Notes: generated by a model not told the origin, from the letters alone. A stretch of DNA of 54,717 bases from an uncultured Bacilli bacterium (GCA_944358545.1 CALVRJ010000003.1:1-54717), one strand, 5' to 3'. Shown: positions 1,774-54,717, numbered from the stretch's first letter. Program-made: numbers and translations.

Positions 1774-3807
1774 TTAAGCTTCTTTGGTATAATCACAACT
1801 TGAACATTTGATTTTGTTCTTTTTTTCGGTAAGCATACTTCCACATTCTGGACATTTTTTACCGGTTGGTTTATCCCAGTATGCTGTTTTACAATTTGGA
1901 TAATTATTGCATCCATAGAAAATTTTGCCTTTTCTACTTCTTTTTTCAACTATTTTGCCGTCACAGTTCGGGCAATCACAAATAATAGATTCTTTGCGTG
2001 GTTCTTGTTTTATATATTTACATTCTGGGAAGTTTGAACAAGCGACAAATTTACCGTACTTACCATTTCTAATTACTAAAGGATGACTACATTCTGGGCA
2101 TTTTTCACCGGTTTCTTCGGCTTCTTTTTTAGGAAGTTTATCAAAGGCTTCTTTAACTGCTGGTTCGAAATCTTTATAGAATTTTTCTAAGAGGTCATAC
2201 CACACTTCTTTGCCTTCAGCAACTTTATCTAAATCTTCTTCCATGCCAGCAGTATATTTAACATTAATTATATTGCTGAAGCATTCTTGGAGTTTATCAT
2301 TTACTTCAAAGCCAATTTCGGTCGGAACAAATTTACGATCAACTAAGTTAACATAGCCACGGGATTTTATATTATCAATAATAGTGGCATAAGTACTTGG
2401 CCTTCCAATTCCAAGTTCATCCATAGTTTTAATAAGTTTGGCTTCGGTATATCTAGCTGGGGGCTGAGTGAAGTGCTGCTCTTTAGTTATATCATTTGAG
2501 GCAATAACATTTGACTTATATGTATCAAAAGGCGGAAGAATAGTGTCTTTAGTGTCTTCATAATCACTATAGACTTTTAAATATCCATCAAATACAATAA
2601 TTTGACCAGTTGCTTTAAAATTGTAGTCGTTATTGTCTAAGATAACTGTTGTCCCTTCAACTTCTGCTGGAGCCATAAGGCTAGCTAGGGCGCGATAGTA
2701 AATCATGCGATATAACTTAAACTCATCATTAGTTAAATAAGGTTTTACTGATTCAGGAGTTCTTTGAATACTTGTTGGTCTGATTGCTTCATGGGCATCT
2801 TGAACATTTTCGGTTTTTTTAGATTTTTTTACTGGCCCAGTATATTTTTCACCATATTTACTTTCGATATATTTATATGTATCGGCGATAAAGTCATCGG
2901 ATAATCTGATTGAATCAGTACGCATATATGTAATTAAACCGGTTGTTTCATTTCCTAAATCGATTCCTTCATATAGTTTTTGGGCAACCATCATAGTTTT
3001 TTTAGATGAAAATTTTAGTTTGTTTGATGATTCTTGCTGCATGGTACTAGTTGTAAATGGTGGCTTTGATTGTTTATTCTTACGCTTTTTATCGACACTT
3101 TCGATAGTAAATGATTTAGATAATTTACTTAGAATATTATCGGCTTCAGTTTCATTTTTGATTTCAATTTTTTTATGCTTATATTCATAGAGGTCAGCTT
3201 GAAAATCTTTAAAATCGGCTTGAATTGTCCAATATTCTTCAGGGTTAAAAGCATTTATTTCTCTTTCTTTGTCAACAATAAGTTTTAAAGCAACACTTTG
3301 AACTCTTCCGGCGGATGTTCCGTCGGTTTTAGATCTTATAAGTTTACTTAAACGAAAGCCAATTATTCTGTCTAAAATACGTCTGGCTTCTTGACTACTA
3401 ACTAAGTTTTGATTAATTTTTCCTTCATGTTTAAAAGCATCTAAAACAGCTTTTTTAGTTACTTCGTGGAAAACGACACGACTATAGTGGTCATCATCTA
3501 ATCCGAGGCATTTATAAAGGTGCCAAGAAATGGCTTCCCCTTCCCTATCTGGATCGGTTGCTAGATAAACTTTATCAGCTTGGGAAGCTTCTTTTTTTAA
3601 TTCATCGATGACTTTTTTCTTGCCTTTTATAACTTTATAGTCAGGTTTAAAATGATTTTCAATATCGACTCCTAAACCATATTTTCCTTTGGTTGAAAGG
3701 TCTCTGATATGACCTTTACTTGATGATACGATATAGTCCTTTCCAAGGTATTTACTTATTGATTTAACTTTTGTTGGAGATTCGACAATAACTAAGTTTT
3801 TGCCCAT
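1774..3807 (-). CDS. topA: DNA topoisomerase I (type IA)
   Basis: TOPRIM LVIVESPTK and ATDPDREGEAI, SAGRVQS, active-site ITYMRTDS, C-terminal C4 zinc ribbons. Confidence 0.98.
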   Translation of the reverse strand: MGKNLVIVESPTKVKSISKYLGKDYIVSSSKGHIRDLSTKGKYGLGVDIENHFKPDYKVIKGKKKVIDELKKEASQADKVYLATDPDREGEAISWHLYKCLGLDDDHYSRVVFHEVTKKAVLDAFKHEGKINQNLVSSQEARRILDRIIGFRLSKLIRSKTDGTSAGRVQSVALKLIVDKEREINAFNPEEYWTIQADFKDFQADLYEYKHKKIEIKNETEADNILSKLSKSFTIESVDKKRKNKQSKPPFTTSTMQQESSNKLKFSSKKTMMVAQKLYEGIDLGNETTGLITYMRTDSIRLSDDFIADTYKYIESKYGEKYTGPVKKSKKTENVQDAHEAIRPTSIQRTPESVKPYLTNDEFKLYRMIYYRALASLMAPAEVEGTTVILDNNDYNFKATGQIIVFDGYLKVYSDYEDTKDTILPPFDTYKSNVIASNDITKEQHFTQPPARYTEAKLIKTMDELGIGRPSTYATIIDNIKSRGYVNLVDRKFVPTEIGFEVNDKLQECFSNIINVKYTAGMEEDLDKVAEGKEVWYDLLEKFYKDFEPAVKEAFDKLPKKEAEETGEKCPECSHPLVIRNGKYGKFVACSNFPECKYIKQEPRKESIICDCPNCDGKIVEKRSRKGKIFYGCNNYPNCKTAYWDKPTGKKCPECGSMLTEKKNKIKCSSCDYTKEA

Positions 3808-42837: not shown

Positions 42838-42853
42838 GGAGCCATATGGCTCC
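42838..42853 (-). terminator. Palindromic terminator-like hairpin
   Basis: Perfect 16-bp palindrome GGAGCCATATGGCTCC followed by a T-run on the minus strand. Confidence 0.6.
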
Positions 42854-42862
42854 TTCAGGGGG
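42847..42862 (-). other. Putative att site: 3'-terminal tRNA-like fragment
   Basis: Minus strand CCCCCTGAAGGAGCCA = T-stem half + 7-nt acceptor strand + G discriminator + CCA; no T-loop upstream. Confidence 0.45.
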
Positions 42863-42968
42863 CAATTTAATAAAAAAAGAGGATTATTAAAAATCCCCGT
42901 AATATCGACATACAATTCATTTTAAGTTTAACAAAATTTAACTAAAAAATGAGAAATTTAGCACAATT

Positions 42969-42989
42969 TGATGGGTAGCTGATGGGTAG
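42969..42989. repeat. Tandem 10-bp direct repeat TGATGGGTAG (integrase arm-site-like)
   Basis: Copies at 42969-42978 and 42980-42989, 11-bp period, about 110 bp from the att-like site. Confidence 0.6.
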
Positions 42990-43111
42990 AAATACTTATC
43001 AGATATTCCTTTTTTTATTATTTAATGACAATATGACATTATATATAGATATGGTACCAATATTTCAAATTACAGTGTTATATAGTGGTATAATACTATT
43101 AGGTGATTTAA

Positions 43112-44059
43112 ATGAGTTTTGTATATGCCAGAAAATTAAAAAATAAATTCTATATATTAGCTGATTCAAAAATAACTATTTCGGACGATGACTCTGATCG
43201 ACTTAAAATTAGAATTGGAGAAAAAGTATATAATGATTTAAAAAAATTTGGAGTAATAAAAAATGTAATAATCAACGAAAATATTTGTATTGCATCTGCT
43301 GGTGTTTTAGAAGACTTCAATGAATTATTAAAATATGTAGATACTCAAAAAATTAATGATATTAATTTAATATCACATCAAGCTTTAAACATTCATTTAC
43401 ATAATAATAAAAGAACTGATTTTATAATAGCAAAAATTGATACAAATAAAGAATTATTAGAAATTAAAAATGGAATTATATCAAAAGTAGAAACTTCATG
43501 GCTAGGTTCATACAATTGTTTTAATATATTTCAAAACATAAGACATGATAAAGTATTTAGAAATCAAATTGAAGATTCATATAGTGTACTTATAGAAGAA
43601 GATAAAAATAGAATTAATTATAATGAATTTCCACCTATAACAATAGATGATATTGAAAAAGATATAGACTTTAAAGCATTCGATAAAGCAGTAAAATCAA
43701 ATACAGATTTAACAGTTGGAGGATATATAGTAGAATGCATTGAACATCACAATAAATTTATGTATCCAGAATGCATTAATAGCACTGTAGAGAAACCACA
43801 AATTGTACCAAGTGACGGAGAAATTAATACTTATAACGAAGCTTCCGAAGGAGGATATACATATCATGCATATGAATCAAACAATAATTTTAAATTATAT
43901 ATTTATCAAATGAAAAAAGGAATTATATATGAACCAAACATTAATGATCCTAAATATAATCATTTAAGACTGCCTAAAATATATAACATGAAATTAGATG
44001 ATTTCATAAAAAATAATAATATAAAACAATCAATAACTATTAATATAGAATATGAATAA
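43112..44059 (+). CDS. Proteasome-beta/HslV-like Ntn-hydrolase candidate
   Basis: After Met removal: Ser1, Asp17 (ADSKIT), Lys49 and Gly63 (14 apart, as K33/G47), LGS, DLTVGG; extended -10 TGGTATAAT and AGGTGA RBS. Confidence 0.6.
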   Translation: MSFVYARKLKNKFYILADSKITISDDDSDRLKIRIGEKVYNDLKKFGVIKNVIINENICIASAGVLEDFNELLKYVDTQKINDINLISHQALNIHLHNNKRTDFIIAKIDTNKELLEIKNGIISKVETSWLGSYNCFNIFQNIRHDKVFRNQIEDSYSVLIEEDKNRINYNEFPPITIDDIEKDIDFKAFDKAVKSNTDLTVGGYIVECIEHHNKFMYPECINSTVEKPQIVPSDGEINTYNEASEGGYTYHAYESNNNFKLYIYQMKKGIIYEPNINDPKYNHLRLPKIYNMKLDDFIKNNNIKQSITINIEYE

Positions 44060-44159
44060 ATGCAATAAAAAAAGAGAATCAACGGATTCCCTATAGAATC
44101 GGCATATAACTCACATTGAGTTTATTAAATTTAAAATGTAATTATTAACACAATTTTAT

Positions 44160-44203
44160 GAGCAATTGATGTTTATAAATACTCGTCAGCTGCTCATTTT
44201 TTT
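44160..44203 (+). terminator. Terminator between the convergent Ntn-like and TIR genes
   Basis: GAGCAATTGA...TCAGCTGCTC imperfect stem followed by a T-run. Confidence 0.5.
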
Positions 44204-44221
44204 AAATAATATTATACAATC

Positions 44222-44737
44222 TTATAATTGATTATATTCTTTCAATTTTCTAGAATTATCAATATTATTTGATTTAAGTATTCTATTATTAAAAGCTTCT
44301 TCTATTATCTGAGATAATTGATATGAATTTGTTGGATAATTATATAATTTTGCATAACCTGATTTTACATTATCTAACAACCTATCAGGAATAGGAGTAT
44401 TAAATTGATTACATCCTGGCAAAAAAATTCCTACTAGTCCACTTCTTTTATTATTTTGATCATTTCTTAATGTAGAAGCTATCTCCCAATCTACATATTT
44501 TCTTTTATAAGTTTCTTTTCCAATCATAACAATAGTAACCGTAGAATCAGTTAAATAGTTTTCCCTTATAACACGCATAGTATATTCTGGATTGTTACTA
44601 TTAATTTCGGTTCCATATTCATTACCAACAATTCTTTTAATAAATGTATTCTCGTAAGAATTAGAATACTTTGTTACAAAATTACACACCTCATAATCAT
44701 CTTTATGATGATATGATATAAAAACTTTATGTTGCAT
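44222..44737 (-). CDS. ThsB-like TIR domain protein (DUF1863-type)
   Basis: KVFISYHH, STVTIVMIG, VDWEI with catalytic Glu, C-terminal IDNSR. Confidence 0.88.
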   Translation of the reverse strand: MQHKVFISYHHKDDYEVCNFVTKYSNSYENTFIKRIVGNEYGTEINSNNPEYTMRVIRENYLTDSTVTIVMIGKETYKRKYVDWEIASTLRNDQNNKRSGLVGIFLPGCNQFNTPIPDRLLDNVKSGYAKLYNYPTNSYQLSQIIEEAFNNRILKSNNIDNSRKLKEYNQL

Positions 44738-44738
44738 A

Positions 44739-45344
44739 TTATTTACTCCTTATCTCATCTAATTTCATTGTTAAATCAACAATCTTTACGTTAACTTTTT
44801 TAATGTCATCAATGATTTCATTATATTTTGGATATCTTTTTTGTATTTCTTGTGGATCTTCATCAGTATTTTTTTCAAGTTCTTTTTCGTACCATTTTCT
44901 GAATCTTGCTTGATATTTGGTTAAATGATTTCTTAAATCCGTATTTAATACCTCTATTAATAGATTGACCAATTTATTCACTTCTTTATCATTGTTTCCA
45001 GCTAATTCTTTAATAATAGTTCTAAATTGATTATATATTGAATACCAAGAATCATAAACCTCAGCAATTACATCATTTTCCGGATCAAAAGGAAGTGCTA
45101 ATTTTCGAGTAATTAATTCTGTCCATGCTTTATGTGCAATTTGCTTTACTTCCTTATTGCATCCAATATCTATTGTTACACCTTTTATACATATTTGTGA
45201 AACACTTATACTTTTAACCTTTTTTATTTTTTTTATTATCTTTACAATACATAAAATACATAAAATAATTATCGGCAATAGGACTACTATATTATCTAAA
45301 CCTATTGTTATTTTATATTTTGATAAAAATTTTAATATATCCAT
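44739..45344 (-). CDS. Hypothetical single-pass membrane protein coupled to the TIR gene
   Basis: Hydrophobic IVVLLPIIILCILCIV then a helical soluble domain; stop codon 1 nt before the TIR ATG. Confidence 0.75.
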   Translation of the reverse strand: MDILKFLSKYKITIGLDNIVVLLPIIILCILCIVKIIKKIKKVKSISVSQICIKGVTIDIGCNKEVKQIAHKAWTELITRKLALPFDPENDVIAEVYDSWYSIYNQFRTIIKELAGNNDKEVNKLVNLLIEVLNTDLRNHLTKYQARFRKWYEKELEKNTDEDPQEIQKRYPKYNEIIDDIKKVNVKIVDLTMKLDEIRSK

Positions 45345-45368
45345 TTACCTCTACCCTCCTAAAATAAT

Positions 45369-47162
45369 CTATAAAGAATAATAGTATTCTTTAATCTTAT
45401 TAGCCATCAATATTCTACGTTGTTTTAAGAATTCATCAAAATCATTAACTGTCATATTTTCAAATCCATCTGGTATGCAATTGATTTTCAAATTCTGATT
45501 TAACAATTCTTTATCAATAATTGATCCAATAGTAGCTTCACCATTTTTACATTGTTCATTTATCTCTAACATATAAGCATTTGGCGCTTTATTTGTTATT
45601 TGTAAATTTATTTCTGTTTGTATTAATGCAAAATTAGCAATTTGATTATAAATGCTCTTATTATTCTTCCCGTTCTTCTGTAGATAGTCTTTAGGGAATA
45701 TATGATGTACATCTCCTCTGCCTTCTACCAGTGTTCTCACTTTCATATCTTTAGATAAGAATGCACTATCATTTAAAGATATTTGGGCAATTAAATATGT
45801 TTTCCAATAAGGAGAACTTGCTACGGGAGTATTAAAGTTTTCGACTAAAATACTATTCCAGAAAGCATCACCTAAACGTCTTTCTAATTCTTCATTAATA
45901 TATTGAACTAAATCTTCTGCTTCATTTAATCTTCTAATATCTAAATCAAATTGTGATTCTGGAGATGAAGTGTATCTTTGTGTAATTATAGACATAATTA
46001 CCCATCTCTTAACAAGTCTTTCAATAATATTTGGAGCTATATTCCTTTCTCTTAACAGTAAAAATAAAATATATCCAAAATTTAGTACATTTTTAGATCT
46101 TAATAATGAATCATCTATTATTCCAGCTGATTTTAAAATCATTACATATCTTTCAAAATTAGTTTGACTAACAAAAGATTTTACTCCATCATATAGTTTG
46201 GTATAACTATCCTCTACTATATCTTCTCTATATTCTCTTGTTTCAAAATCACGACCAGATAGCAAAGAAACTAAATCCTGTAATTTACCTCTTTTGAACT
46301 TATAAGTAAAAGCAACTCTTAATACATCTACATAACTTGGTAAAAATAAATCTTCATTTTTATCTTTTATCCATGATATCTTATTAAATATTTCTTTTTT
46401 ACTAAAATCAATATCATTATTTTTTATATTTTCATAATCAACAGGTGTTTTTGCAAAATGACAAAAATAATCAATTGCTTTTCTTATATCATTTCCTTCA
46501 TATTTTTCATTAACACTAATCTTACTCATTGCAAAATCTGCTTGAGAAAGAACCACACCAGCAGAATTTATTCTTACAAATATTTCTGTTACCGTTTCAA
46601 TATCTAACATAGACCCTAATTCTATTCTGCCAATCATTATATTCTTTATAGATTGTAATTTAGTAATTTTTTTACTTAATTCATTTGCATCTAAATTAAA
46701 CTTTTGAGAATAATTACTAATAAATTCAAATGTGTTAAAACCAGGTTTCATAACTTCAGAAATATCAGAAATCCATTCTTCTTGCTTTTCAATAGCTGGA
46801 TTACAAGTTTGAAATTCCTCTGTTTGAATGTTAAAAGCGATCTTTATTCTTTTTTTCTTATAATTGTCATCTAATACTTCTTCTCCTAATAATGATGCCG
46901 TTAAAGCTGTAATTCTTTGCTGACCATCTATTAATATTTGCTTACCTTCTGATGCAGATCCGTCTTTTAATTTTACATCTGGACTTTTCCATGTAATTAT
47001 ATAGCCTACAGGATATTCTCTATATAAAGAATCAATCAAATCTCTAACTTTAGTTGTATCCCATACAAAAGGTCTTTGTATTTCAGGTATAGCAATAGTC
47101 CCATCATTAACATATCCCAAAAGAGTTTCCACACTTACATTGTTAACATCAAATTTTGCCAT
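45369..47162 (-). CDS. GmrSD-like type IV restriction protein (DUF262 + C-terminal HNH-like DUF1524)
   Basis: IPEIQRPFVW, LIDGQQR, FVRINS; C-terminal DVHHIFPK...IANFAL. Confidence 0.88.
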   Translation of the reverse strand: MAKFDVNNVSVETLLGYVNDGTIAIPEIQRPFVWDTTKVRDLIDSLYREYPVGYIITWKSPDVKLKDGSASEGKQILIDGQQRITALTASLLGEEVLDDNYKKKRIKIAFNIQTEEFQTCNPAIEKQEEWISDISEVMKPGFNTFEFISNYSQKFNLDANELSKKITKLQSIKNIMIGRIELGSMLDIETVTEIFVRINSAGVVLSQADFAMSKISVNEKYEGNDIRKAIDYFCHFAKTPVDYENIKNNDIDFSKKEIFNKISWIKDKNEDLFLPSYVDVLRVAFTYKFKRGKLQDLVSLLSGRDFETREYREDIVEDSYTKLYDGVKSFVSQTNFERYVMILKSAGIIDDSLLRSKNVLNFGYILFLLLRERNIAPNIIERLVKRWVIMSIITQRYTSSPESQFDLDIRRLNEAEDLVQYINEELERRLGDAFWNSILVENFNTPVASSPYWKTYLIAQISLNDSAFLSKDMKVRTLVEGRGDVHHIFPKDYLQKNGKNNKSIYNQIANFALIQTEINLQITNKAPNAYMLEINEQCKNGEATIGSIIDKELLNQNLKINCIPDGFENMTVNDFDEFLKQRRILMANKIKEYYYSL

Positions 47163-47177
47163 TTTTTCACCACTTTC

Positions 47178-50100
47178 TTACATTTCTTTTATTGAATTTT
47201 CAATATGTTCAATTTCTTCATCAGTTAATTCATATTTCAAATATAATTGTTGATCTATTTCTTTTATTGACTTACTCCAATCAATATCAGAGTTTTCTGA
47301 AATATCTTGAATAGGAACATAATCAAATGTCTTTGATGTTGCATCTTGACTACTTTTTAATAAACTATGTAAATATCTTAAAAATTTTGTTTTTAAATAT
47401 TTTGATAAATTATTAGCTTCATTTTCAGTCATTCCTAAATCTGCGCCTATAGTTAAATATGATTCAGTACAAATAGTATTAGGTTCTCCGACAAAAGAAT
47501 TCATATTATCATCATTTAACTCAGTTCCAATATTATTAGCACGAGGAATAAATACTTTCCAATTGTTAACCCATTCATTATGATTTAAAATGTTTTTAGC
47601 ATTTGTAAATTTAATATTCTTTCCTTTTATATAGCACTTAATATTATTAGTTTTACTTTTGTCATCCACTAAATTTTTACTTCTAGCAAAGTTACCATCT
47701 AAACCAAAAGGTTTTCTTGATGAAACCAAGTCAGAAAAACTTCTAAAAAATTCATTTTCTTTAATTTTTAAAAGTATAGATTCTGCATGATTATCTCTTA
47801 TAAAAACATTATCATCAAATAGTTTCATATTTCTATACATATCACTCACTATATTATTATCTTTTCGTGAAATAACTCTAACTTTGCTATCTTGGTTATT
47901 GTACTCTTTATCCCATAAAAGATAACAAACACCACCACGATTATTTGTGTTAGGAAAAATATCTTCAGGTGTTAAACAATCATTTATTTCTTTAATATTA
48001 ATGTCATTTAACATAGAAATTCTAAAATCGTCTAAACCTTTTCCGCCAACATACCATCTTGATGGAATAATTAAAGAGATGTATTTATTAGCAATGCTTC
48101 TGCTTATATTAACAAAATCACTATATATTGGTCTTGCACTTGCACCAGCTCCACCATCTGCTTCTTGATATGGAGGATTACCAACAACAATATCAAACTT
48201 CATTTTTCCATCTCCTTCCACATATAACAAATTATCTTCTAACATAATCTCTGACATTTTTTTATTTTGTAATAAATATTTTTTTATTTTATTTAAATCT
48301 AAATTGTTATTTTCTTTAATGTTAAGTAAATCATACGATGTAAAACTTGTTGCAATATTTTCTACATTCAAATTTAAAATCTCATATACTTTTCTTGTAA
48401 ACTCATATGCAATTTTAGATGTAGGTATCGAATATAAACAGTTATTAATCAATTCTTCATTTAAATTTAATTGTTTTAATTTAGAATACATTGCTATAAT
48501 GAATTCTCCTTCTTTACTAGCAATATCTAAAATATTTGAACCGGAATTTACCACATTTATAATATCACTATCTGGTATTGTAGATATCATTTTATTACAT
48601 ATTTTATTTGGTGTAATTATTTCTGAATCAGATAATTTGTCAAATTTATTTATAGCTATTAACGCTCTATCTATTTTATTTAATGATTCATCATTTGATA
48701 ATTTATTGATGTTTTGTATTTTATAATCTAGTTGACTCAAAACAAACGGATCAATATTTTCATAAATTAATTTTAATATATTAATGTCTAACTCTAAATT
48801 CATTAAAATTCTTTGATTATTTGAATCTTCATATGTGCCAATAATATTTTTTAATGAACTTAGTTTACTATCTGATAAGAAAGAATAAAACAAAATTCTG
48901 ACATAATAAGTTTTAAATTTATTAATAATAATTTTCTTTAAATCATTACTATCAGTAGTATTATTTGACGAATTGTTTTGAGTATCATTGTTTTGATTTT
49001 CTAATTCATCATCAAATTCTAATGATAATTCTTCAAAATCGTCTACTTCATCATCTGTATTAACTAGTTTTAAACCACCTTTTGAACCAAGCTCAGCCTG
49101 TTTCAATATTATTTCTCTTATTTCATCTATATTTAATAACTTAAAGTCAACAGGCAAAGCGTTTGATTCATCAAGAACACTTCTTGAATTTGAATAATTA
49201 CTAATATAGTTCATAATATCTATTGCTGTTATTTGTTTTAATTTATTACTATCAAAAACAATAATCGGTGAAATATTCAATTCATTTTCTAATCTATCTT
49301 TTAATTTATCGTTACCATTATTTTCAGTATTAACATTGTAAATTAAAGACTTTGTTTCTTGCATTATAAACATTCTATTTGGATTAAAATCAACTAATAA
49401 TGTTTGTGGTTTCTTATTATATTTAATAATGTCACCATCTTCAGATACATATTCTTTTACATATTGATTTTGTAACCTAAAAATTGCTTGATCATATTCT
49501 TGTGGAGATGATGTATCTTTCAAATAAATCATTGTGTCCCATTCTTCGACAGTGCTTCCTGTTAACATTCTGTTAACGGTTAAAGTTATTGTTTTTTTAT
49601 TGTTTCTTTCACAATTTTTAATTGCATATTTTATATCATTTATATTTCTATAGGAATTAGATTCATCAACTCCTGAAATATTAATAATTTCATATTCATT
49701 TAAATTTTTAAATTTATCTTTATTGTCTTTTATTAACTTTTCAAACGAATCACATGAAGCACAAAATGGTAAGACTACTACAATATGTCTGCACATTTTT
49801 CCTTCTTTTATTTTATCAAAATCTAAAAAGCCTAATACTTCATCATCATTTTTACTTCCATCAATAACTTCTAATAAATCTAATATTTCAGTTTCATATT
49901 TAAATTTTTGATGTTTCCCTTCAGAATTTTTTGTTATTGATAAAGGTCTAAACAATTCAGAAAAAGCATATGTTATTCCTAATTTCTTTAATTCTAGTAA
50001 TTTTTCTCTAATTGATTTATTTGGATTAAATGCAAATCTAACCATTTGTGGAAAACCATAATAAGGATTTTCCCATTCTTTGTATGAATCATCTAATATA

Positions 50101-51206
50101 TGTTCCTTATCCCAATCTGACTGTGCTTTTACAATATCTGGAAATTGATAGAAACCAATTATATCTTCTTTTTCAAATTCAGAACCCATTAAAATTCTAT
50201 ACGGAGTACCAGATAAGTGAATTCTAACTTTAGATTTTAATACTTTTACAATATTATCAGCATCTTCAAAATTTATATTTTCATCTTCTCTGGTATCTCT
50301 AACATCTCTTAATACAGCGCCATAACTCTCAGCTCTTGCACCAAAGTGTGTTTCATCGATTAGTAATAAATCTATTTGATTGTTAAATAGTTCTTGGTGT
50401 TTTTCTTTTATTTTAGTCCCTTGTAAATCTTGTAGTGTCAAAAATACAACAACTTTTCTACCATTTGTTAGTTTATTTTTTATAATTTTGTTATCTCTTA
50501 ATAATTGTTCACTTTCAATAAAATCATATTCTTTAAAATTTTCAGCACTTTGTACAGTCTTCTTCCACTCTTCTTTTACATCAGCTTTTGCTGAAACTAT
50601 TAAAACTACATTTGCATCCATTTCTAATGCACAGCACATTGATGTAAAACTCTTTCCAAATCTCATAACAGCATATAATAATAAATTTGTTCTACCTGCT
50701 GCATATGCTTTTTTAAAATTATTTACTACTTCTAGTTGGTTAGGTCTTAATTTCCAAATGCCTGTAGAAGCATATTCTGTGATTACTCTAAGATTATCAT
50801 TAGCATTATAAAATTGATATTTCATTAAATTTTCTTCAAAATCTCTTTTTATATCTTTGATGGCATCATCTATGTCAGATACGGAAGTTCCTTTAAAGAA
50901 CTCATTTGAAAAATAAATATTTTCATCAATATCTTTAGATGTTAATCTTTCTTTTTGTAAATCATTTTCTAAAAATTGATGTACAGAATAATCCCTAAAA
51001 AATATATCTTCTGATACCATAGCTTTAGTATCATATTTTTTTTCTAATTCGGGATAATGTTTTTTCCATTCATCTAATCTTACTGATACAGGTCTATAAG
51101 TGTCACCAATCTTTATATAATTAGGTACTGTATTTGTAGTAAAAGCATATATATGTGGTTCAACACGCCCAACAATAATTTTATCTAATAAGCTCAAATC
51201 TTTCAT
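47178..51206 (-). CDS. GIY-YIG/T5orf172-like nuclease - SF2 helicase - N6-adenine MTase - TRD fusion
   Basis: HIYAF...YIKIGDT...R; MRFGKS, IDETH, SGTPY, QAIFR; ILDIASKEG, FDIVVGNPPYQ; KVFIPRANN-type C-terminus. Confidence 0.85.
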   Translation of the reverse strand: MKDLSLLDKIIVGRVEPHIYAFTTNTVPNYIKIGDTYRPVSVRLDEWKKHYPELEKKYDTKAMVSEDIFFRDYSVHQFLENDLQKERLTSKDIDENIYFSNEFFKGTSVSDIDDAIKDIKRDFEENLMKYQFYNANDNLRVITEYASTGIWKLRPNQLEVVNNFKKAYAAGRTNLLLYAVMRFGKSFTSMCCALEMDANVVLIVSAKADVKEEWKKTVQSAENFKEYDFIESEQLLRDNKIIKNKLTNGRKVVVFLTLQDLQGTKIKEKHQELFNNQIDLLLIDETHFGARAESYGAVLRDVRDTREDENINFEDADNIVKVLKSKVRIHLSGTPYRILMGSEFEKEDIIGFYQFPDIVKAQSDWDKEHILDDSYKEWENPYYGFPQMVRFAFNPNKSIREKLLELKKLGITYAFSELFRPLSITKNSEGKHQKFKYETEILDLLEVIDGSKNDDEVLGFLDFDKIKEGKMCRHIVVVLPFCASCDSFEKLIKDNKDKFKNLNEYEIINISGVDESNSYRNINDIKYAIKNCERNNKKTITLTVNRMLTGSTVEEWDTMIYLKDTSSPQEYDQAIFRLQNQYVKEYVSEDGDIIKYNKKPQTLLVDFNPNRMFIMQETKSLIYNVNTENNGNDKLKDRLENELNISPIIVFDSNKLKQITAIDIMNYISNYSNSRSVLDESNALPVDFKLLNIDEIREIILKQAELGSKGGLKLVNTDDEVDDFEELSLEFDDELENQNNDTQNNSSNNTTDSNDLKKIIINKFKTYYVRILFYSFLSDSKLSSLKNIIGTYEDSNNQRILMNLELDINILKLIYENIDPFVLSQLDYKIQNINKLSNDESLNKIDRALIAINKFDKLSDSEIITPNKICNKMISTIPDSDIINVVNSGSNILDIASKEGEFIIAMYSKLKQLNLNEELINNCLYSIPTSKIAYEFTRKVYEILNLNVENIATSFTSYDLLNIKENNNLDLNKIKKYLLQNKKMSEIMLEDNLLYVEGDGKMKFDIVVGNPPYQEADGGAGASARPIYSDFVNISRSIANKYISLIIPSRWYVGGKGLDDFRISMLNDINIKEINDCLTPEDIFPNTNNRGGVCYLLWDKEYNNQDSKVRVISRKDNNIVSDMYRNMKLFDDNVFIRDNHAESILLKIKENEFFRSFSDLVSSRKPFGLDGNFARSKNLVDDKSKTNNIKCYIKGKNIKFTNAKNILNHNEWVNNWKVFIPRANNIGTELNDDNMNSFVGEPNTICTESYLTIGADLGMTENEANNLSKYLKTKFLRYLHSLLKSSQDATSKTFDYVPIQDISENSDIDWSKSIKEIDQQLYLKYELTDEEIEHIENSIKEM

Positions 51207-51221
51207 ATGATACCTCTCTTT

Positions 51222-52187
51222 CTACTTAATTAAAGATATAAATTTTATACTTCTATTAGTTTTCCAATTCATAACTTTGCAATAAATCCCATTGTGATTT
51301 TTAGGTTTATTTTTTTTGCATCCTAAACATTCTTCATTATGTTCAATATCTCCAAATAAAGTTAATTCGATTTTTTTTTCATTTTTGCAACTATTTGGAA
51401 TGACAAATTTTAATCCATCCATTTGCCAAATGTTCCAACTTATTATCTCAGCTATTTTTTTTACTAATTCTATATTTGGTTTTTTATTAAATTTATCCTT
51501 ATAATAATCAATAAAAGTATATAATAAATTTTCTCTTGCAATTAAAACATTATCTCCTTGCCAATCATATCCATAAACGCTTTTCATTGCTTTAATCGAC
51601 CATTCTACCCATTCTGATTCATCATTCGCATTTTCTGAAACTATTCTTAACTTTCTATCTAACAATCCAATTCTATTTTTTATTTTTATGCTTTTACCTG
51701 TTACTGAATCATATCTGCTTACAAGATATGGTGCTTCGCCACATGAAATTTCTAATCTCGTACTATTAATATAATCTTGCCATGTTTTGCTTTCAGGAAA
51801 ATATATCTTTTCTTCTACTGTTTCCCAGCTATCTTTGTTAGATTTATTAAATACAATATCTCGTTCGAACCAAGCCTCGTCTACTAAATTGTTTTGATTA
51901 TTACAAATCCATGAAGGGGTGAAAACTTCTGCATTTTCTTTTATTCTTTTATTTTTTTCTTGAGCTGATTTTTTTGATCTTGGCTTTATTACTTCTCTAT
52001 AATTACCAGTTATCTTATCAACTGTAATTTCATCTTCAAAATTAAATCTATTACCATATTCCTTATAATTATCCGTTGCCCAAATAATATTTTTTTTACT
52101 ACTATGATCAAACAGAAGTATATTTAAAATTTCAGCATCAACTAATAATAAGTTTTCCTCTTTTACATCAACTAATTCTCTAAACAA
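51222..52187 (-). CDS. RM-associated methyltransferase-like subunit lacking the catalytic NPPY motif
   Basis: IIWATD, AEVFTPSW, LEISCGEAPYL, YGYDWQGD, WQMDG; no (D/N)PP(Y/F); Cys/His-rich C-terminus. Confidence 0.8.
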   Translation of the reverse strand: MFRELVDVKEENLLLVDAEILNILLFDHSSKKNIIWATDNYKEYGNRFNFEDEITVDKITGNYREVIKPRSKKSAQEKNKRIKENAEVFTPSWICNNQNNLVDEAWFERDIVFNKSNKDSWETVEEKIYFPESKTWQDYINSTRLEISCGEAPYLVSRYDSVTGKSIKIKNRIGLLDRKLRIVSENANDESEWVEWSIKAMKSVYGYDWQGDNVLIARENLLYTFIDYYKDKFNKKPNIELVKKIAEIISWNIWQMDGLKFVIPNSCKNEKKIELTLFGDIEHNEECLGCKKNKPKNHNGIYCKVMNWKTNRSIKFISLIK

Positions 52188-52216
52188 GTTTTCACCTCCC
52201 TGACATTTTTATTTAA

Positions 52217-52738
52217 CTAAAAATCTTTTGGCAATTTGCTGTAATCATATTTATTTTGAGCTTTTACCAATTCATCAAAAGCATATTTTATATCTTCTAT
52301 AGCTTTATCTATCGTATATAAACTATCTTTGTTTTCTTGCATTAATTTTAAATGTTCCATAGTATAAAATAATTTTCCTCTTGCATCATTCACTACTGCT
52401 CTTTTTTTAGCATCCCAATCTAATAAATCTAATTGGGACTTTTTATATCTTTCTATCATATCTTTTAAATCCCTTGTGGATTTATTTTTATATCTATCTA
52501 ATGATAAATAATCAAGAAATTCGTCATATCCTGCTACTTTTAATAACTTTTTTAAAGATAAGTCTAATGTTTCAGCTATCTTTTTTAATGCATCTACATC
52601 TATTTTTTTTATTTTACCATTAATAATATCATTTAAAGTACTTCTACTGATTCCTGATAACTTTGCAAGTTCTCTTTGTGATATTCCTTTAGCTTCTCTA
52701 GCACTTTCAATAATACTTTTAAGTTCTTCTGAATTCAT
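52217..52738 (-). CDS. XRE-family HTH repressor
   Basis: REAKGISQRELAKLSGISRSTLNDIING; start re-placed at ATG 52738. Confidence 0.9.
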   Translation of the reverse strand: MNSEELKSIIESAREAKGISQRELAKLSGISRSTLNDIINGKIKKIDVDALKKIAETLDLSLKKLLKVAGYDEFLDYLSLDRYKNKSTRDLKDMIERYKKSQLDLLDWDAKKRAVVNDARGKLFYTMEHLKLMQENKDSLYTIDKAIEDIKYAFDELVKAQNKYDYSKLPKDF

Positions 52739-52778
52739 ATATTCACTTCTTTCTCCCATTTTTTCTTCTTCTTAACTA

Positions 52779-52807
52779 ATTTTATCATTTTTTTAAAAAT
52801 GTGTCTA
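52779..52807 (-). promoter_or_regulatory. Leftward promoter (repressor + defence operon)
   Basis: TAGACA-17-TAAAAT with TGn extension. Confidence 0.7.
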
Positions 52808-52878
52808 TAATTTCGGACAAAAAGTATTGACAAGTTTTCCGGACAATGTTATATTTTAATTGACTGATATTTCGGACA
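52802..52878. promoter_or_regulatory. Three operator-like sites TG(T/A)C-N10-GACA
   Basis: 52802-52819, 52828-52845, 52861-52878; the first two overlap the two -35 elements. Confidence 0.7.
52827..52855 (+). promoter_or_regulatory. Rightward (early) promoter
   Basis: TTGACA-17-TATATT with TGn extension. Confidence 0.8.
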
Positions 52879-52897
52879 CAAAATATTAAGTTAAATT

Positions 52898-52912
52898 TGT
52901 TCTTTGAAAACT
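52898..52912 (+). promoter_or_regulatory. boxA-like antitermination motif
   Basis: TGTTCTTTGAAAACT resembles the Bacillota rrn boxA. Confidence 0.55.
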
Positions 52913-52998
52913 TAGTCTTAGTGGAAATCGCCGATATGCCATTAAGTAAAAAATGCAAGGCAGAAATTATCCTCATACTGGCAAAGAGGAGTTATGGT

Positions 52999-53079
52999 AT
53001 GACTAATATATCAAGTTATGAAATAACTAAAATTTCACGAAGGGTTTATGCCCGAAAGTACTCTACCCTTTTTAGATAA
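52999..53079 (+). CDS. Possible 26-aa leader peptide
   Basis: GAGGAG RBS 7 nt before ATG; MTNISSYEITKISRRVYARKYSTLFR. Confidence 0.35.
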   Translation: MTNISSYEITKISRRVYARKYSTLFR

Positions 53080-53099
53080 TGAAGGAGGTGAAAAAATAT

Positions 53100-53417
53100 A
53101 TGAAACACTTTACTTCTATTAGAAATGATGTTTTAGAAAACTCTAAGTTATCATTAGGAGCTAAAGGACTATATTGCTTAATATGTTTTGATGTAACCGC
53201 ATCATTAAGACAACTACTATTAGATCCTAATACTAAAGCAGAAACTATAAAGTTTGCTAATGAATTAATGGAAAATGATTATGCACATTTCTTTGGCTTA
53301 GAAGAATGTGTTAGTAAAGATTCATATCTTGGTCTTAGTATCTCTATGCAACCTACTGATGAATATAAAAAAGTTGTTGATATAAGATACAAAAAATACG
53401 AAGAATTAGAAAGATAA
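53100..53417 (+). CDS. Short protein with a replication-initiator-type N-terminal HTH
   Basis: FTSIRNDVLENSKLSLGAKGLY motif; AAGGAGGTG RBS. Confidence 0.6.
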   Translation: MKHFTSIRNDVLENSKLSLGAKGLYCLICFDVTASLRQLLLDPNTKAETIKFANELMENDYAHFFGLEECVSKDSYLGLSISMQPTDEYKKVVDIRYKKYEELER

Positions 53418-53430
53418 AAGGAGGTGTAAT

Positions 53431-53694
53431 ATGACCGTAGATGAAACTTTAAAACTTATTGCACAACAATGGTGCAACTTATCAGATTTAATGAAACTTG
53501 CAAATATAGGCAGAAATTCAGCATTAACCATTAAAAGTAAAATCAAAAATGATTTAGAAAGTAAAGGTTATTATGTTCCAAAGAACGCTGTACCAATGCA
53601 AGAAGTTGTTAAATATTTAAATATCGATATTGATTATTTAGAATCAAGAAGTAAAAATTTGAAGGGAGATGTTAAAATTGCTCAAACCTATTGA
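53431..53694 (+). CDS. Excisionase-like HTH protein (ICEBs1 Xis-like)
   Basis: DLMKLANIGRNSALTI...DLESKGYYVPKNAVP resembles the Xis pattern; AGGAGGTG RBS. Confidence 0.55.
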   Translation: MTVDETLKLIAQQWCNLSDLMKLANIGRNSALTIKSKIKNDLESKGYYVPKNAVPMQEVVKYLNIDIDYLESRSKNLKGDVKIAQTY

Positions 53695-54634
53695 AAAAGT
53701 AGATACAAGCATAAAAAAAGACATCATCATAAATAATATAATGAAGTCTAAAGGCGTGTATCTACTAGTGTCTAATCCAAAAGTAGGAAAGTCTATGTTG
53801 GCACTGCAACTTTCCTGCTCCGTTATTAACGGAACACCATTTTTAGGACAAAAAGTAAATCACTCACCTGTTTTATATGTTACCACAGAATCCGATGCTG
53901 GTCAATTAAAGGAACGTCTAGAATTTCTAGAACTTTCCGCAAAAAACGACTCGCTATTTATAATAGATAGACAAACAAAAGCTAATATATCGTTAAGAGA
54001 TATAGAATATGATATTAAAGTTTTTGCTGAAGATTATAATGGTAAATTAATAATATTAGATATGTTAAAAGATGTTGATTTTGGAGTTCAATATGACATT
54101 AATAATTATCAAGATGTTGCTCAGCAGGTATTTCCAAAATTAAGAACTTATTGTGATAAATATAACGTTACTTTTTTAGTTACACATCATCTAAATAAAA
54201 CTGGTAAAACTTTAGGAAGTGTTGCATTAAATGCAACAGTAGATGGTAGAATCACTTTAATAGAAAATAAATCTAATAAAAGATATGTTAAATTGCAAAC
54301 AATTAATAGAGATTTTCCAGAATTAGATATTCAATTAAAAAAATTAGATAATCTTATATTTCAAAAAATAAATTCTATTGAAGATGATGAACTATCATAT
54401 GAAATGACTTCTTTTATAAAGTATGTTGCTAGTCAAAAAGAAATTGATTTTACTTGTACTGATATTGTGTTAAAAGCCAATATACCAATGTCACCTAAGA
54501 GATTTGGTAGACTACTTAATAGTAGTCTGGAACTCTTAGAAAGCGAAGGTGTTCATATCACTAAATGTAGAACTGCTGAAAGCAGATTATATCATGCTAC
54601 ATTTATAGAGCCTTCGCAAAATGAAGATGATTAA
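53678..54634 (+). CDS. AAA_25/RepA-DnaB-like ATPase (helicase-like)
   Basis: Walker A SNPKVGKS, Walker B IILD, VTHHLNK...LGSVAL; TTG start at 53678 fits RBS spacing (track start 53669). Confidence 0.8.
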   Translation: MLKPIEKVDTSIKKDIIINNIMKSKGVYLLVSNPKVGKSMLALQLSCSVINGTPFLGQKVNHSPVLYVTTESDAGQLKERLEFLELSAKNDSLFIIDRQTKANISLRDIEYDIKVFAEDYNGKLIILDMLKDVDFGVQYDINNYQDVAQQVFPKLRTYCDKYNVTFLVTHHLNKTGKTLGSVALNATVDGRITLIENKSNKRYVKLQTINRDFPELDIQLKKLDNLIFQKINSIEDDELSYEMTSFIKYVASQKEIDFTCTDIVLKANIPMSPKRFGRLLNSSLELLESEGVHITKCRTAESRLYHATFIEPSQNEDD

Positions 54635-54717
54635 TGTGGCACGTTTGGTACTATAAAAGTGTAATAAGTAAATCTTTTAACAAGATTGAACATTACACTA
54701 TTTTATATTATGATTGA

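Follow-up and report, generated by a model that had tools for sequence, protein, structure and literature searches.

The stretch of DNA analysed here (the window) is one entire contig (C3, 54,717 nt; CALVRJ010000003.1) of the metagenome-assembled genome (MAG) of an uncultured Bacilli bacterium (GCA_944358545.1; 66 contigs, 1.38 Mb, ∼30% GC). Toward its right end lies a block of six minus-strand genes, which begins with an XRE/CI-like repressor gene and ends with a gene for a ThsB-type TIR protein (Table 1). These genes are the cargo of an integrated mobile element, between its repressor and its attachment (att) site, as an initial annotation of this DNA had proposed, and we argue below that they are probably transcribed from the repressor promoter, P_xre. 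The gaps between successive genes are 29, 15, 15, 24 and 1 nt, and a GGAGG-like ribosome-binding site stands 6–10 nt 5′ of each start codon; the ATG at 52738 as start of the XRE gene is supported by 22 homologues and a conserved ribosome-binding site. A terminator scan of the minus strand (hairpin plus T-run, folding free energy dG ≤ −7 kcal/mol) gave nothing between 52760 and 44222. The tight, terminator-free packing described in the initial annotation is thus confirmed.

Domain searches agree with the labels given earlier, and behind the repressor the block divides into three modules, each a different layer of defence with activities predicted from sequence. The first module pairs a methyltransferase (MTase)-like protein with a Type IIG restriction-modification (RM) enzyme. 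Close relatives of the 321-aa MTase-like protein are named “restriction endonuclease subunit M” by NCBI. Despite this family label the protein lacks a (D/N/S)PP(Y/F) motif, has no Pfam or PDB match and, in an AlphaFold2 (AF2) model of mediocre quality (predicted local distance difference test score, pLDDT, 66), no significant PDB fold match; the catalytic motif of an active DNA methyltransferase is thus missing and its Rossmann fold was not recognised in this model, and the original name “half-MTase” was a fair one. Its gene travels with the Type IIG gene, and the pair also follows the XRE gene at two other loci (L033 and L039). The Type IIG protein is matched over its full length by PADLOC REase_MTase_IIG (1536 bits), as well as by Pfam ResIII and Eco57I. 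Its single chain joins an N-terminal domain, a superfamily 2 helicase (GKS184, DETH284) and a gamma-class N6-adenine MTase (NPPY1010), the combination of helicase/nuclease and MTase that defines Type IIG, ISP-like enzymes. The second module is a GmrSD-type Type IV restriction enzyme, counted as having both the DUF262 and the His-Me (DUF1524) parts, the latter on a C-terminal HH..N..N found by pattern only.

The third module consists of TM201, a small protein with one membrane helix, and the TIR protein, which carries a catalytic-type VDWEI motif. The AF2 model of TM201 is good (pLDDT 86) and has no significant PDB fold match. In each of the four distant genomes checked, the TM201 homologue is part of a ThsB_TIR gene cluster: adjacent to the TIR gene in two, separated from it by one Nmad2 gene in another, and ∼2.4 kb away on the opposite strand in the last. 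This recurrence argues that the TM201–TIR pair is a real module, and we infer that TM201 serves the TIR protein as partner or effector. ThsA-type domains were not detected in the TIR partner, the remaining defence genes of the block or the backbone genes scanned. The TM201 family (relatives L108–L111), of ∼200–230 aa and without a Pfam entry, includes some homologues from Flavobacteriales, Peregrinibacteria and Pseudomonadales records. Two TM201 loci also have Nmad2 and MazG-type genes, one of them with HMUDK_hel too, and these neighbourhoods suggest a larger nucleotide-based conflict system.

Table 1. Features of the six-gene block, its flanks and the adjoining element backbone (window coordinates)
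Feature	Position	Strand	Description
attL	42838-42862		Hairpin GGAGCC-N4-GGCTCC then TTCAGGGGG; minus-strand intrinsic terminator, dG −11.9
Conserved element end block	42863-43020	−	78–93% nt identity over 150–210 bp to 11 other-species loci
Convergent 315-aa gene	43112-44059	+	Family unassigned in sequence searches
Degenerate second end-block copy	44040-44225	−	Terminator 44092-44069, the first one 3′ of the six-gene block
ThsB-type TIR protein	44222-44737	−	171 aa; Pfam ThsB_TIR 3e-18, PADLOC ThsB
TM201	44739-45344	−	201 aa; one N-terminal membrane helix, then helical bundle
GmrSD-type Type IV restriction enzyme	45369-47162	−	597 aa; GmrSD_N 8e-33
Type IIG, ISP-like RM enzyme	47178-51206	−	1342 aa
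MTase-like protein	51222-52187	−	321 aa, TTG start; PADLOC MTase_II 4e-121
XRE/CI-like repressor	52217-52738	−	173 aa; HTH_3 1.5e-16 plus helical C-terminal half
P_xre	52779-52807	−	−35 TAGACA, 17-nt spacer, extended −10 TGATAAAAT
Operator-like sites	52811-52879		Three TGTCCG(A/G)AA sites, written TGTCCGAAA; from sequence comparison
Divergent promoter for mobility and replication genes	52827-52855	+	TTGACA, 17 nt, TATATT with TG
47-aa open reading frame (ORF)	52936-53079	+	Divergent backbone gene
105-aa gene	53100-53417	+	Divergent backbone gene
87-aa gene	53431-53694	+	Divergent backbone gene
AAA_25/RepA-like ATPase	53669-54634	+	Divergent backbone gene
Left end of multi-copy insertion	54647-54717		Between AAA_25 and mob genes

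Upstream of the XRE gene, P_xre is the sole extended −10 element with a 5/6 match to the −35 consensus on the minus strand between 44000 and 52900, and generic sigma-70 matches occur at the level of chance (95 seen against 94.6 expected from shuffled sequence). Short same-strand gaps without an internal terminator or internal promoter signal are what a single operon is expected to show. Among the three operator-like sites, the first adjoins the −35 of P_xre, the second falls within the spacer of the divergent promoter, and the third, just 3′ of the divergent −10, forms a TGTCC-N8-GGACA palindrome in several relatives. This switch region (P_xre, the divergent TTGACA/TATATT promoter and the three sites) is kept in relatives whose XRE identity is as low as 49%, and P_xre is retained also in loci whose mobility genes have been lost. 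Because it has a helix-turn-helix (HTH) domain and stands beside divergent promoters with operators in or near the opposing promoter, the XRE protein is probably a CI-like repressor. The arrangement of HTH repressor, divergent promoter and shared operators, all of them predicted sites, is that of a CI/Cro-type switch, except that domain scans of XRE and its neighbours matched neither a self-cleaving Peptidase_S24 domain nor an ImmA-type protease. Between the divergent promoter and the 47-aa ORF, the leader (52880-52935) is almost invariant DNA even where XRE is ∼50% identical; its conservation exceeds what coding would need and could reflect a structured leader or an additional binding site.

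At the opposite end of the block, a 15-nt exact direct repeat, GGCTCCTTCAGGGGG, is present both within attL (42848-42862) and at the other end of the element, beside recG on contig C54, and both copies sit in a hairpin plus T-run that constitutes the recG terminator. Next to attL is the conserved end block of the element, ∼170–190 bp in size, with two TGATGGGTAG repeats (42968-42991) that are candidate recombinase arm sites and with a hairpin plus T-run terminator of its own (GGGGATTTTTAATAATCCTC + T7, 42898-42870), a feature that per-sequence folds recover in 18 of 20 slots. Three terminators were found in all beyond the TIR gene, at 44092-44069 (dG −7.7), 42898-42875 and 42853-42834, the first of them in a degenerate second copy of the end block. 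The initial annotation had taken a convergent, “Ntn-like” gene to close the block, a view that needs revision on two counts. This 315-aa gene lies beyond the degenerate copy and before the real end block, and its place between the two puts it outside the XRE-headed array; and searches of Pfam, PADLOC, NCBIfam, PHROGs and PDB sequences gave no match that would support the label. Reading by eye, we note a TG-n-TATAAT (extended −10-like) sequence 5′ of it.

Together with contig C54, positions 42838-54717 make up a predicted ∼16 kb integrative mobilizable element (IME) inserted in the recG terminator. Its backbone comprises a tyrosine integrase, a Mob_Pre relaxase, an AAA_25 protein and XRE; the divergent genes continue from the window onto C54 with the relaxase, a CHAT-domain protein, the integrase and attR beside recG. 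The element thus has its own site-specific recombinase (a Phage_integrase homologue on C54), a relaxase without conjugation pore genes, and flanking direct repeats at a specific target, recG being the neighbour of most backbone-bearing loci. Complete maps from recG to att in two relatives (L028 and L029) contain only int, (CHAT), mob, AAA_25, small genes, XRE and cargo. In L028, from another species, 11.8 kb of the element, cargo and all, match at 99.0%, against just 59% identity for RecG; this contrast delimits the element, indicates its recent horizontal transfer between hosts and is indirect evidence of excision and mobilization. We therefore take it for a small IME and not a prophage; no virion genes were seen in the element, and its megablast comparison with a phage collection matched nothing. 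The related records come from gut MAGs and bear the labels “uncultured Bacilli”, “Tenericutes” or “Mollicutes”.

A small RNA gene was considered as the integration target and rejected in favour of the recG terminator, as Rfam recognized zero known RNAs at either att site or anywhere in the window. An empty site was not recovered: two closed genomes of the same genus have the left-flank gene elsewhere, with neither recG nor the element nearby. The CHAT (caspase-like) protein (348 aa; L020:3847-4893, minus strand; Pfam 2.5e-8) is encoded between mob and int here and is present in L029, yet missing from the otherwise 99% identical element of L028, so its position appears to be a second variable spot of the backbone. 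In an abundant gut lineage (L010–L019; XRE 81% identical), the XRE-headed array adjoins recG and a DUF975 gene and encodes Dam-type MTases, DUF6339, DUF4160 and others, with only three tiny divergent ORFs and without mobility genes; these arrays look like a fixed, domesticated remnant of the island.

Comparison of relatives shows how exactly the cargo is bounded. With XRE as query we collected 80 related loci, in which ORFs are longest-ORF calls and gaps are therefore approximate. Three other species (L029, L030 and L031) have XRE 99–100% identical and a backbone ∼97% identical to those of the window. Homology to them covers 54646 to 52217 and breaks off there, at the last base of the XRE stop codon. 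It resumes in L029 and L031 at 43017-43052, ∼190 bp before att, and runs to 42828; the att-proximal end of L030 lies outside the locus compared, so this resumption is seen in two of the three relatives. In between, the cargo of all three is wholly unrelated to that of the window, yet again consists of defence genes: a DpnII-like RM system with AbiU and an nSTAND NTPase in one relative; two MTases with a ParB-like protein, an SNF2 helicase and GajA in another; and a D12 MTase with TdeIII and a PDC-M49A-like protein in the third. The swapping of cargo between att and repressor, which the initial annotation had named as a thing to look for, is thereby observed. The result is a dedicated cargo slot, delimited by sequence comparison as running from the XRE stop codon to the conserved end block with its terminator.

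This layout extends across the wider family. In 20 distinct slots with both boundaries, almost all ORFs are co-oriented with XRE, and a 19-slot sample of cargo, with 78 protein clusters, has RM, GmrSD, Abi, Gabija, zeta toxin, KAP/STAND and Thoeris-type as its dominant families, many clusters lacking a known-family match in our tallies. A same-strand gene comes next after XRE in 68 of the 70 species-level loci that have enough 3′ sequence, and in 37 of these 68 it starts within 30 nt. The first cargo gene usually begins 5–24 nt after the XRE stop, and at many junctions GAGG and a start codon come straight after TAG or TAA, too close for a promoter to fit between. One subfamily (L048, L052, L060–L064, L072 and L099) has a conserved hairpin directly after the XRE stop, ATAGAACGAAAA...TTCGTTCTAT, without a T-run, and in most of its loci a 500-aa gene lies 169 nt downstream; in another (L071 and L078–L082), XRE is followed by a clear terminator and the surroundings are different and not those of an IME. 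A search seeded with the end block instead of XRE returned one locus with XRE, one GmrSD locus from which XRE is deleted, and one locus without recognised XRE or backbone. We dropped the argument that XRE is kept because the cargo needs it, since the 80 loci were XRE-seeded and the end-block search found XRE-less ones.

In the genome at hand, the element bears two lesions. In the integrase gene on C54 (locus L020, reverse strand, ∼2550-3740), one extra A (+1) in an A-run leaves two ORFs, of 152 and 255 aa, where L028, L029 and L031 have an intact gene of 395 aa; the cause could be true decay or, in the MAG, a homopolymer error. A multi-copy insertion, in addition, spans the end of C3 and the last ∼70 nt of C54. 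Its insertion point reads ...GTGGCACGTTT^TGCTTGC..., and L028 has the uninterrupted site. One of its ends also occurs at the start of contig C37, and the other recurs where C13 and C31 end. A subterminal imperfect palindrome marks the left end, terminal inverted repeats are absent, and we take these ends to resemble those of the IS200/IS605 type; the contigs checked at their ends did not include the body of the insertion. Contig C3 ends at 54717 because this multi-copy insertion breaks the assembly there. A continuation of C3 into C37 was rejected, as the 77-mer that they have in common is one end of the repeated insertion. With its integrase frameshifted and its backbone interrupted, the element is probably immobile and not inducible in this genome, though frameshift or insertion could be an effect of assembly or strain mixture in the MAG. 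The XRE–cargo unit itself is intact.

Such damage is one of the points that favour a deflationary explanation, in which the block is an ordinary chromosomal defence island beside a decayed element and its tight spacing reflects compaction in a 1.4 Mb genome, with no regulatory meaning. The genome is indeed small and gene-dense, and of 47 related loci with 6 kb or more of upstream sequence, 19 lack the full backbone. Such an island would nevertheless hardly share 11.8 kb, together with its cargo, at 99% identity with a host whose RecG is 59% identical, nor would its boundaries be exact and common across species, and we consider this explanation very improbable.

The same boundaries bear on the suggestion in the initial annotation that XRE may act like an RM controller (C) protein, which would time the Type IIG enzyme against methylation and not serve as the element repressor. 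XRE does precede RM genes in many arrays, and it has weak PADLOC “Control_protein” matches (3e-6) and a PDB profile match to C.BclI (1e-3). These matches are to generic HTH_3, however, for which HipB, SinR and a phage immunity repressor score alike, and XRE, at 173 aa, has an extra C-terminal domain. Its predicted operators lie in the divergent switch region of the backbone, and backbone homology stops at the XRE stop codon. Above all, XRE that is 99–100% identical heads differing, unrelated arrays, and a 75% identical relative heads a lone Peptidase_S51 gene; a near-identical XRE before unrelated cargo belongs to the backbone and not to an RM system. There is little left to recommend the controller idea, and we have set it aside as highly unlikely.

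A more serious competitor concerns transcription within the slot, and the GmrSD gene is informative here. It is 85% identical at the nucleotide level to a gene at L083 over window positions 47179-45364 only, the homology ending 5 nt 3′ of the gene, and the genes 3′ of GmrSD in L083 have no homology to TM201 or the TIR protein; the same 85% identity to L047 extends from 47170 to the end of the L047 contig. A further copy (90% aa identity) lies in genome G050 (L124) beside an AAA_25 gene fragment, where a deletion removed XRE and the switch. GmrSD thus moves between arrays as a single-gene module. In these other contexts its homology reaches just 8–17 nt upstream of the ORF, too little for the module to bring its own promoter.

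These observations weigh on the alternative that the block comprises several transcription units, P_xre serving XRE and at most the first cargo genes, with Type IIG, GmrSD and TM201–TIR expressed mainly from promoters within the preceding coding sequences. AT-rich DNA is rich in sigma-70-like sites, and an 11/12 match (TTGACA-16-AATAAT) lies inside the Type IIG gene at 48643-48616. Some relatives have terminators at larger gaps within their arrays, and G050 retains its GmrSD cargo although XRE and P_xre are deleted. Yet the promoter-like matches, which are at chance frequency, include none close 5′ of a gene start and no extended −10 with a good −35 within the block, which also lacks an internal terminator. 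Since GmrSD keeps only 8–17 nt of its own upstream sequence in three contexts, an embedded promoter would need a separate origin in every one of the unrelated genes that precede it. We regard separate units as unlikely on this evidence, though less so than either of the two preceding explanations.

Our preferred reading remains that all six genes share a P_xre transcript as their main source, to which we attach moderate confidence. Comparison of sequences establishes the element with its ends and slot boundaries, shows that cargo is replaced and that the genes are packed tightly in one orientation, and identifies a conserved promoter and terminator. The edge of homology at the XRE stop codon, the tight gaps, and the conservation of P_xre and of the slot-end terminator together make co-transcription from the XRE promoter well supported by comparison. 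The proposal of the initial annotation that the block is transcribed from the repressor promoter therefore stands as the simplest reading, since P_xre is the only promoter of its grade and the slot has a terminator, while it is still deduced from these signals. Several points weigh against it besides the internal promoter match, the within-array terminators and the persistence of cargo in G050. XRE has a terminator of its own in ∼10 junction types, so that, with the internal terminators, co-transcription is not universal in the family. An alignment-based covariation test of the end-block terminator yielded zero double-sided changes, because the stems shift register, and this terminator is supported by per-sequence folds only. 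An 8.6 kb AT-rich operon could be shortened by Rho or by processing. Finally, the “induction” that is part of the scheme may not occur in this genome.

In the mechanism that we propose, XRE would act in the manner of CI, repressing the divergent promoter for the replication, mobilization and integration genes, while P_xre would stay on in the integrated state. One mRNA of ∼8.6 kb would start near 52772 on the minus strand, include XRE and the cargo, and end at 44092-44069, so that the defence genes would be expressed while the element sits repressed in the chromosome; as the initial annotation suggested, this expression may fall when the element is induced. Read-through beyond the slot, which would reach att and, once the element is circular, the 3′ end of the integrase gene, would be blocked by the element terminator. 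Production of restriction and abortive-infection proteins would then be tied to the switch of a mobile element, which bears on the establishment of the element in new hosts and on phage–host dynamics in the gut.

Lambda cI-rexAB, where rexAB is transcribed from PRM, and BstA prophages are established examples of the principle. There too anti-phage genes lie on the same strand directly 3′ of the maintenance repressor, are expressed when the prophage is integrated and form a mosaic hotspot. The carrier here differs in being a mobilizable island with a relaxase and without virion genes, and its slot holds multi-system arrays of 4–9 kb instead of one or two genes, starting exactly at the stop codon and ending at the element terminator beside att. 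The regulatory layout also recalls immR-immA-int of the integrative and conjugative element (ICE) ICEBs1, whose repressor promoter is active in the integrated state and drives the genes 3′ of the repressor, while a divergent promoter drives the excision and transfer genes. Those downstream genes are an anti-repressor protease and the integrase, whereas here they are cargo, an ImmA-like protease is absent and the integrase gene comes last in the divergent operon. In P2 prophages, P4-like satellites and the SXT ICE, too, a conserved mobile backbone has set positions at which unrelated defence systems interchange; to our knowledge, these hotspots are not defined as starting at a repressor stop codon and sharing its transcript.

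Integron arrays offer another parallel, with co-oriented and mostly promoterless genes after one platform promoter and with single genes, as GmrSD here, being mobile. In the present element, by contrast, no IntI-type integrase is next to the array, the integrase being at the other end of the element, and no attC-like repeats were found at gene or module junctions. We tentatively suggest, as an idea that goes beyond our evidence and that we rate as possible more than probable, that this IME family is an integron-like immunity platform in which promoterless defence genes are swapped with gene-level precision, read from an autoregulated repressor promoter and insulated by a terminator. If so, the size and output of the defence array would be set by the lysogeny-type switch of the element, and XRE-headed islands would persist after mobility genes decay. 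Thoeris is approached by the third module, in which a ThsB-family TIR protein with a catalytic Glu context lies beside a second gene; this partner, of ∼200 aa with a membrane helix and helical bundle, takes the place of the SIR2/SLOG/Macro ThsA of Thoeris, which is absent here.

Among mobile elements, the closest in build are the streptococcal and other Firmicutes IMEs with a MOBV relaxase and a tyrosine integrase (PMC5357655, PMC5704250), which are likewise small, carry Mob_Pre/MOBV without conjugation pore genes, bear variable cargo and insert site-specifically at the 3′ end of a conserved gene. In our case the hosts are uncultured gut Bacilli known as MAGs, the target is the recG terminator (the word recG being absent from the best-matching IME papers in a full-text literature search), and the cargo is almost all defence, in one defined slot behind the repressor. 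The gain over lambda rexAB and BstA is accordingly one of scope and detail and not a new concept: what differs is the carrier, a recG-inserted IME of uncultured gut Bacilli, along with the multi-system arrays and a slot of exact boundaries. For the small mobilizable islands of these abundant bacteria, the comparison yields a testable layout of promoter, repressor, swappable defence array, terminator and att, with exact slot boundaries that ease both the mining for new defence genes and the design of reporter constructs.

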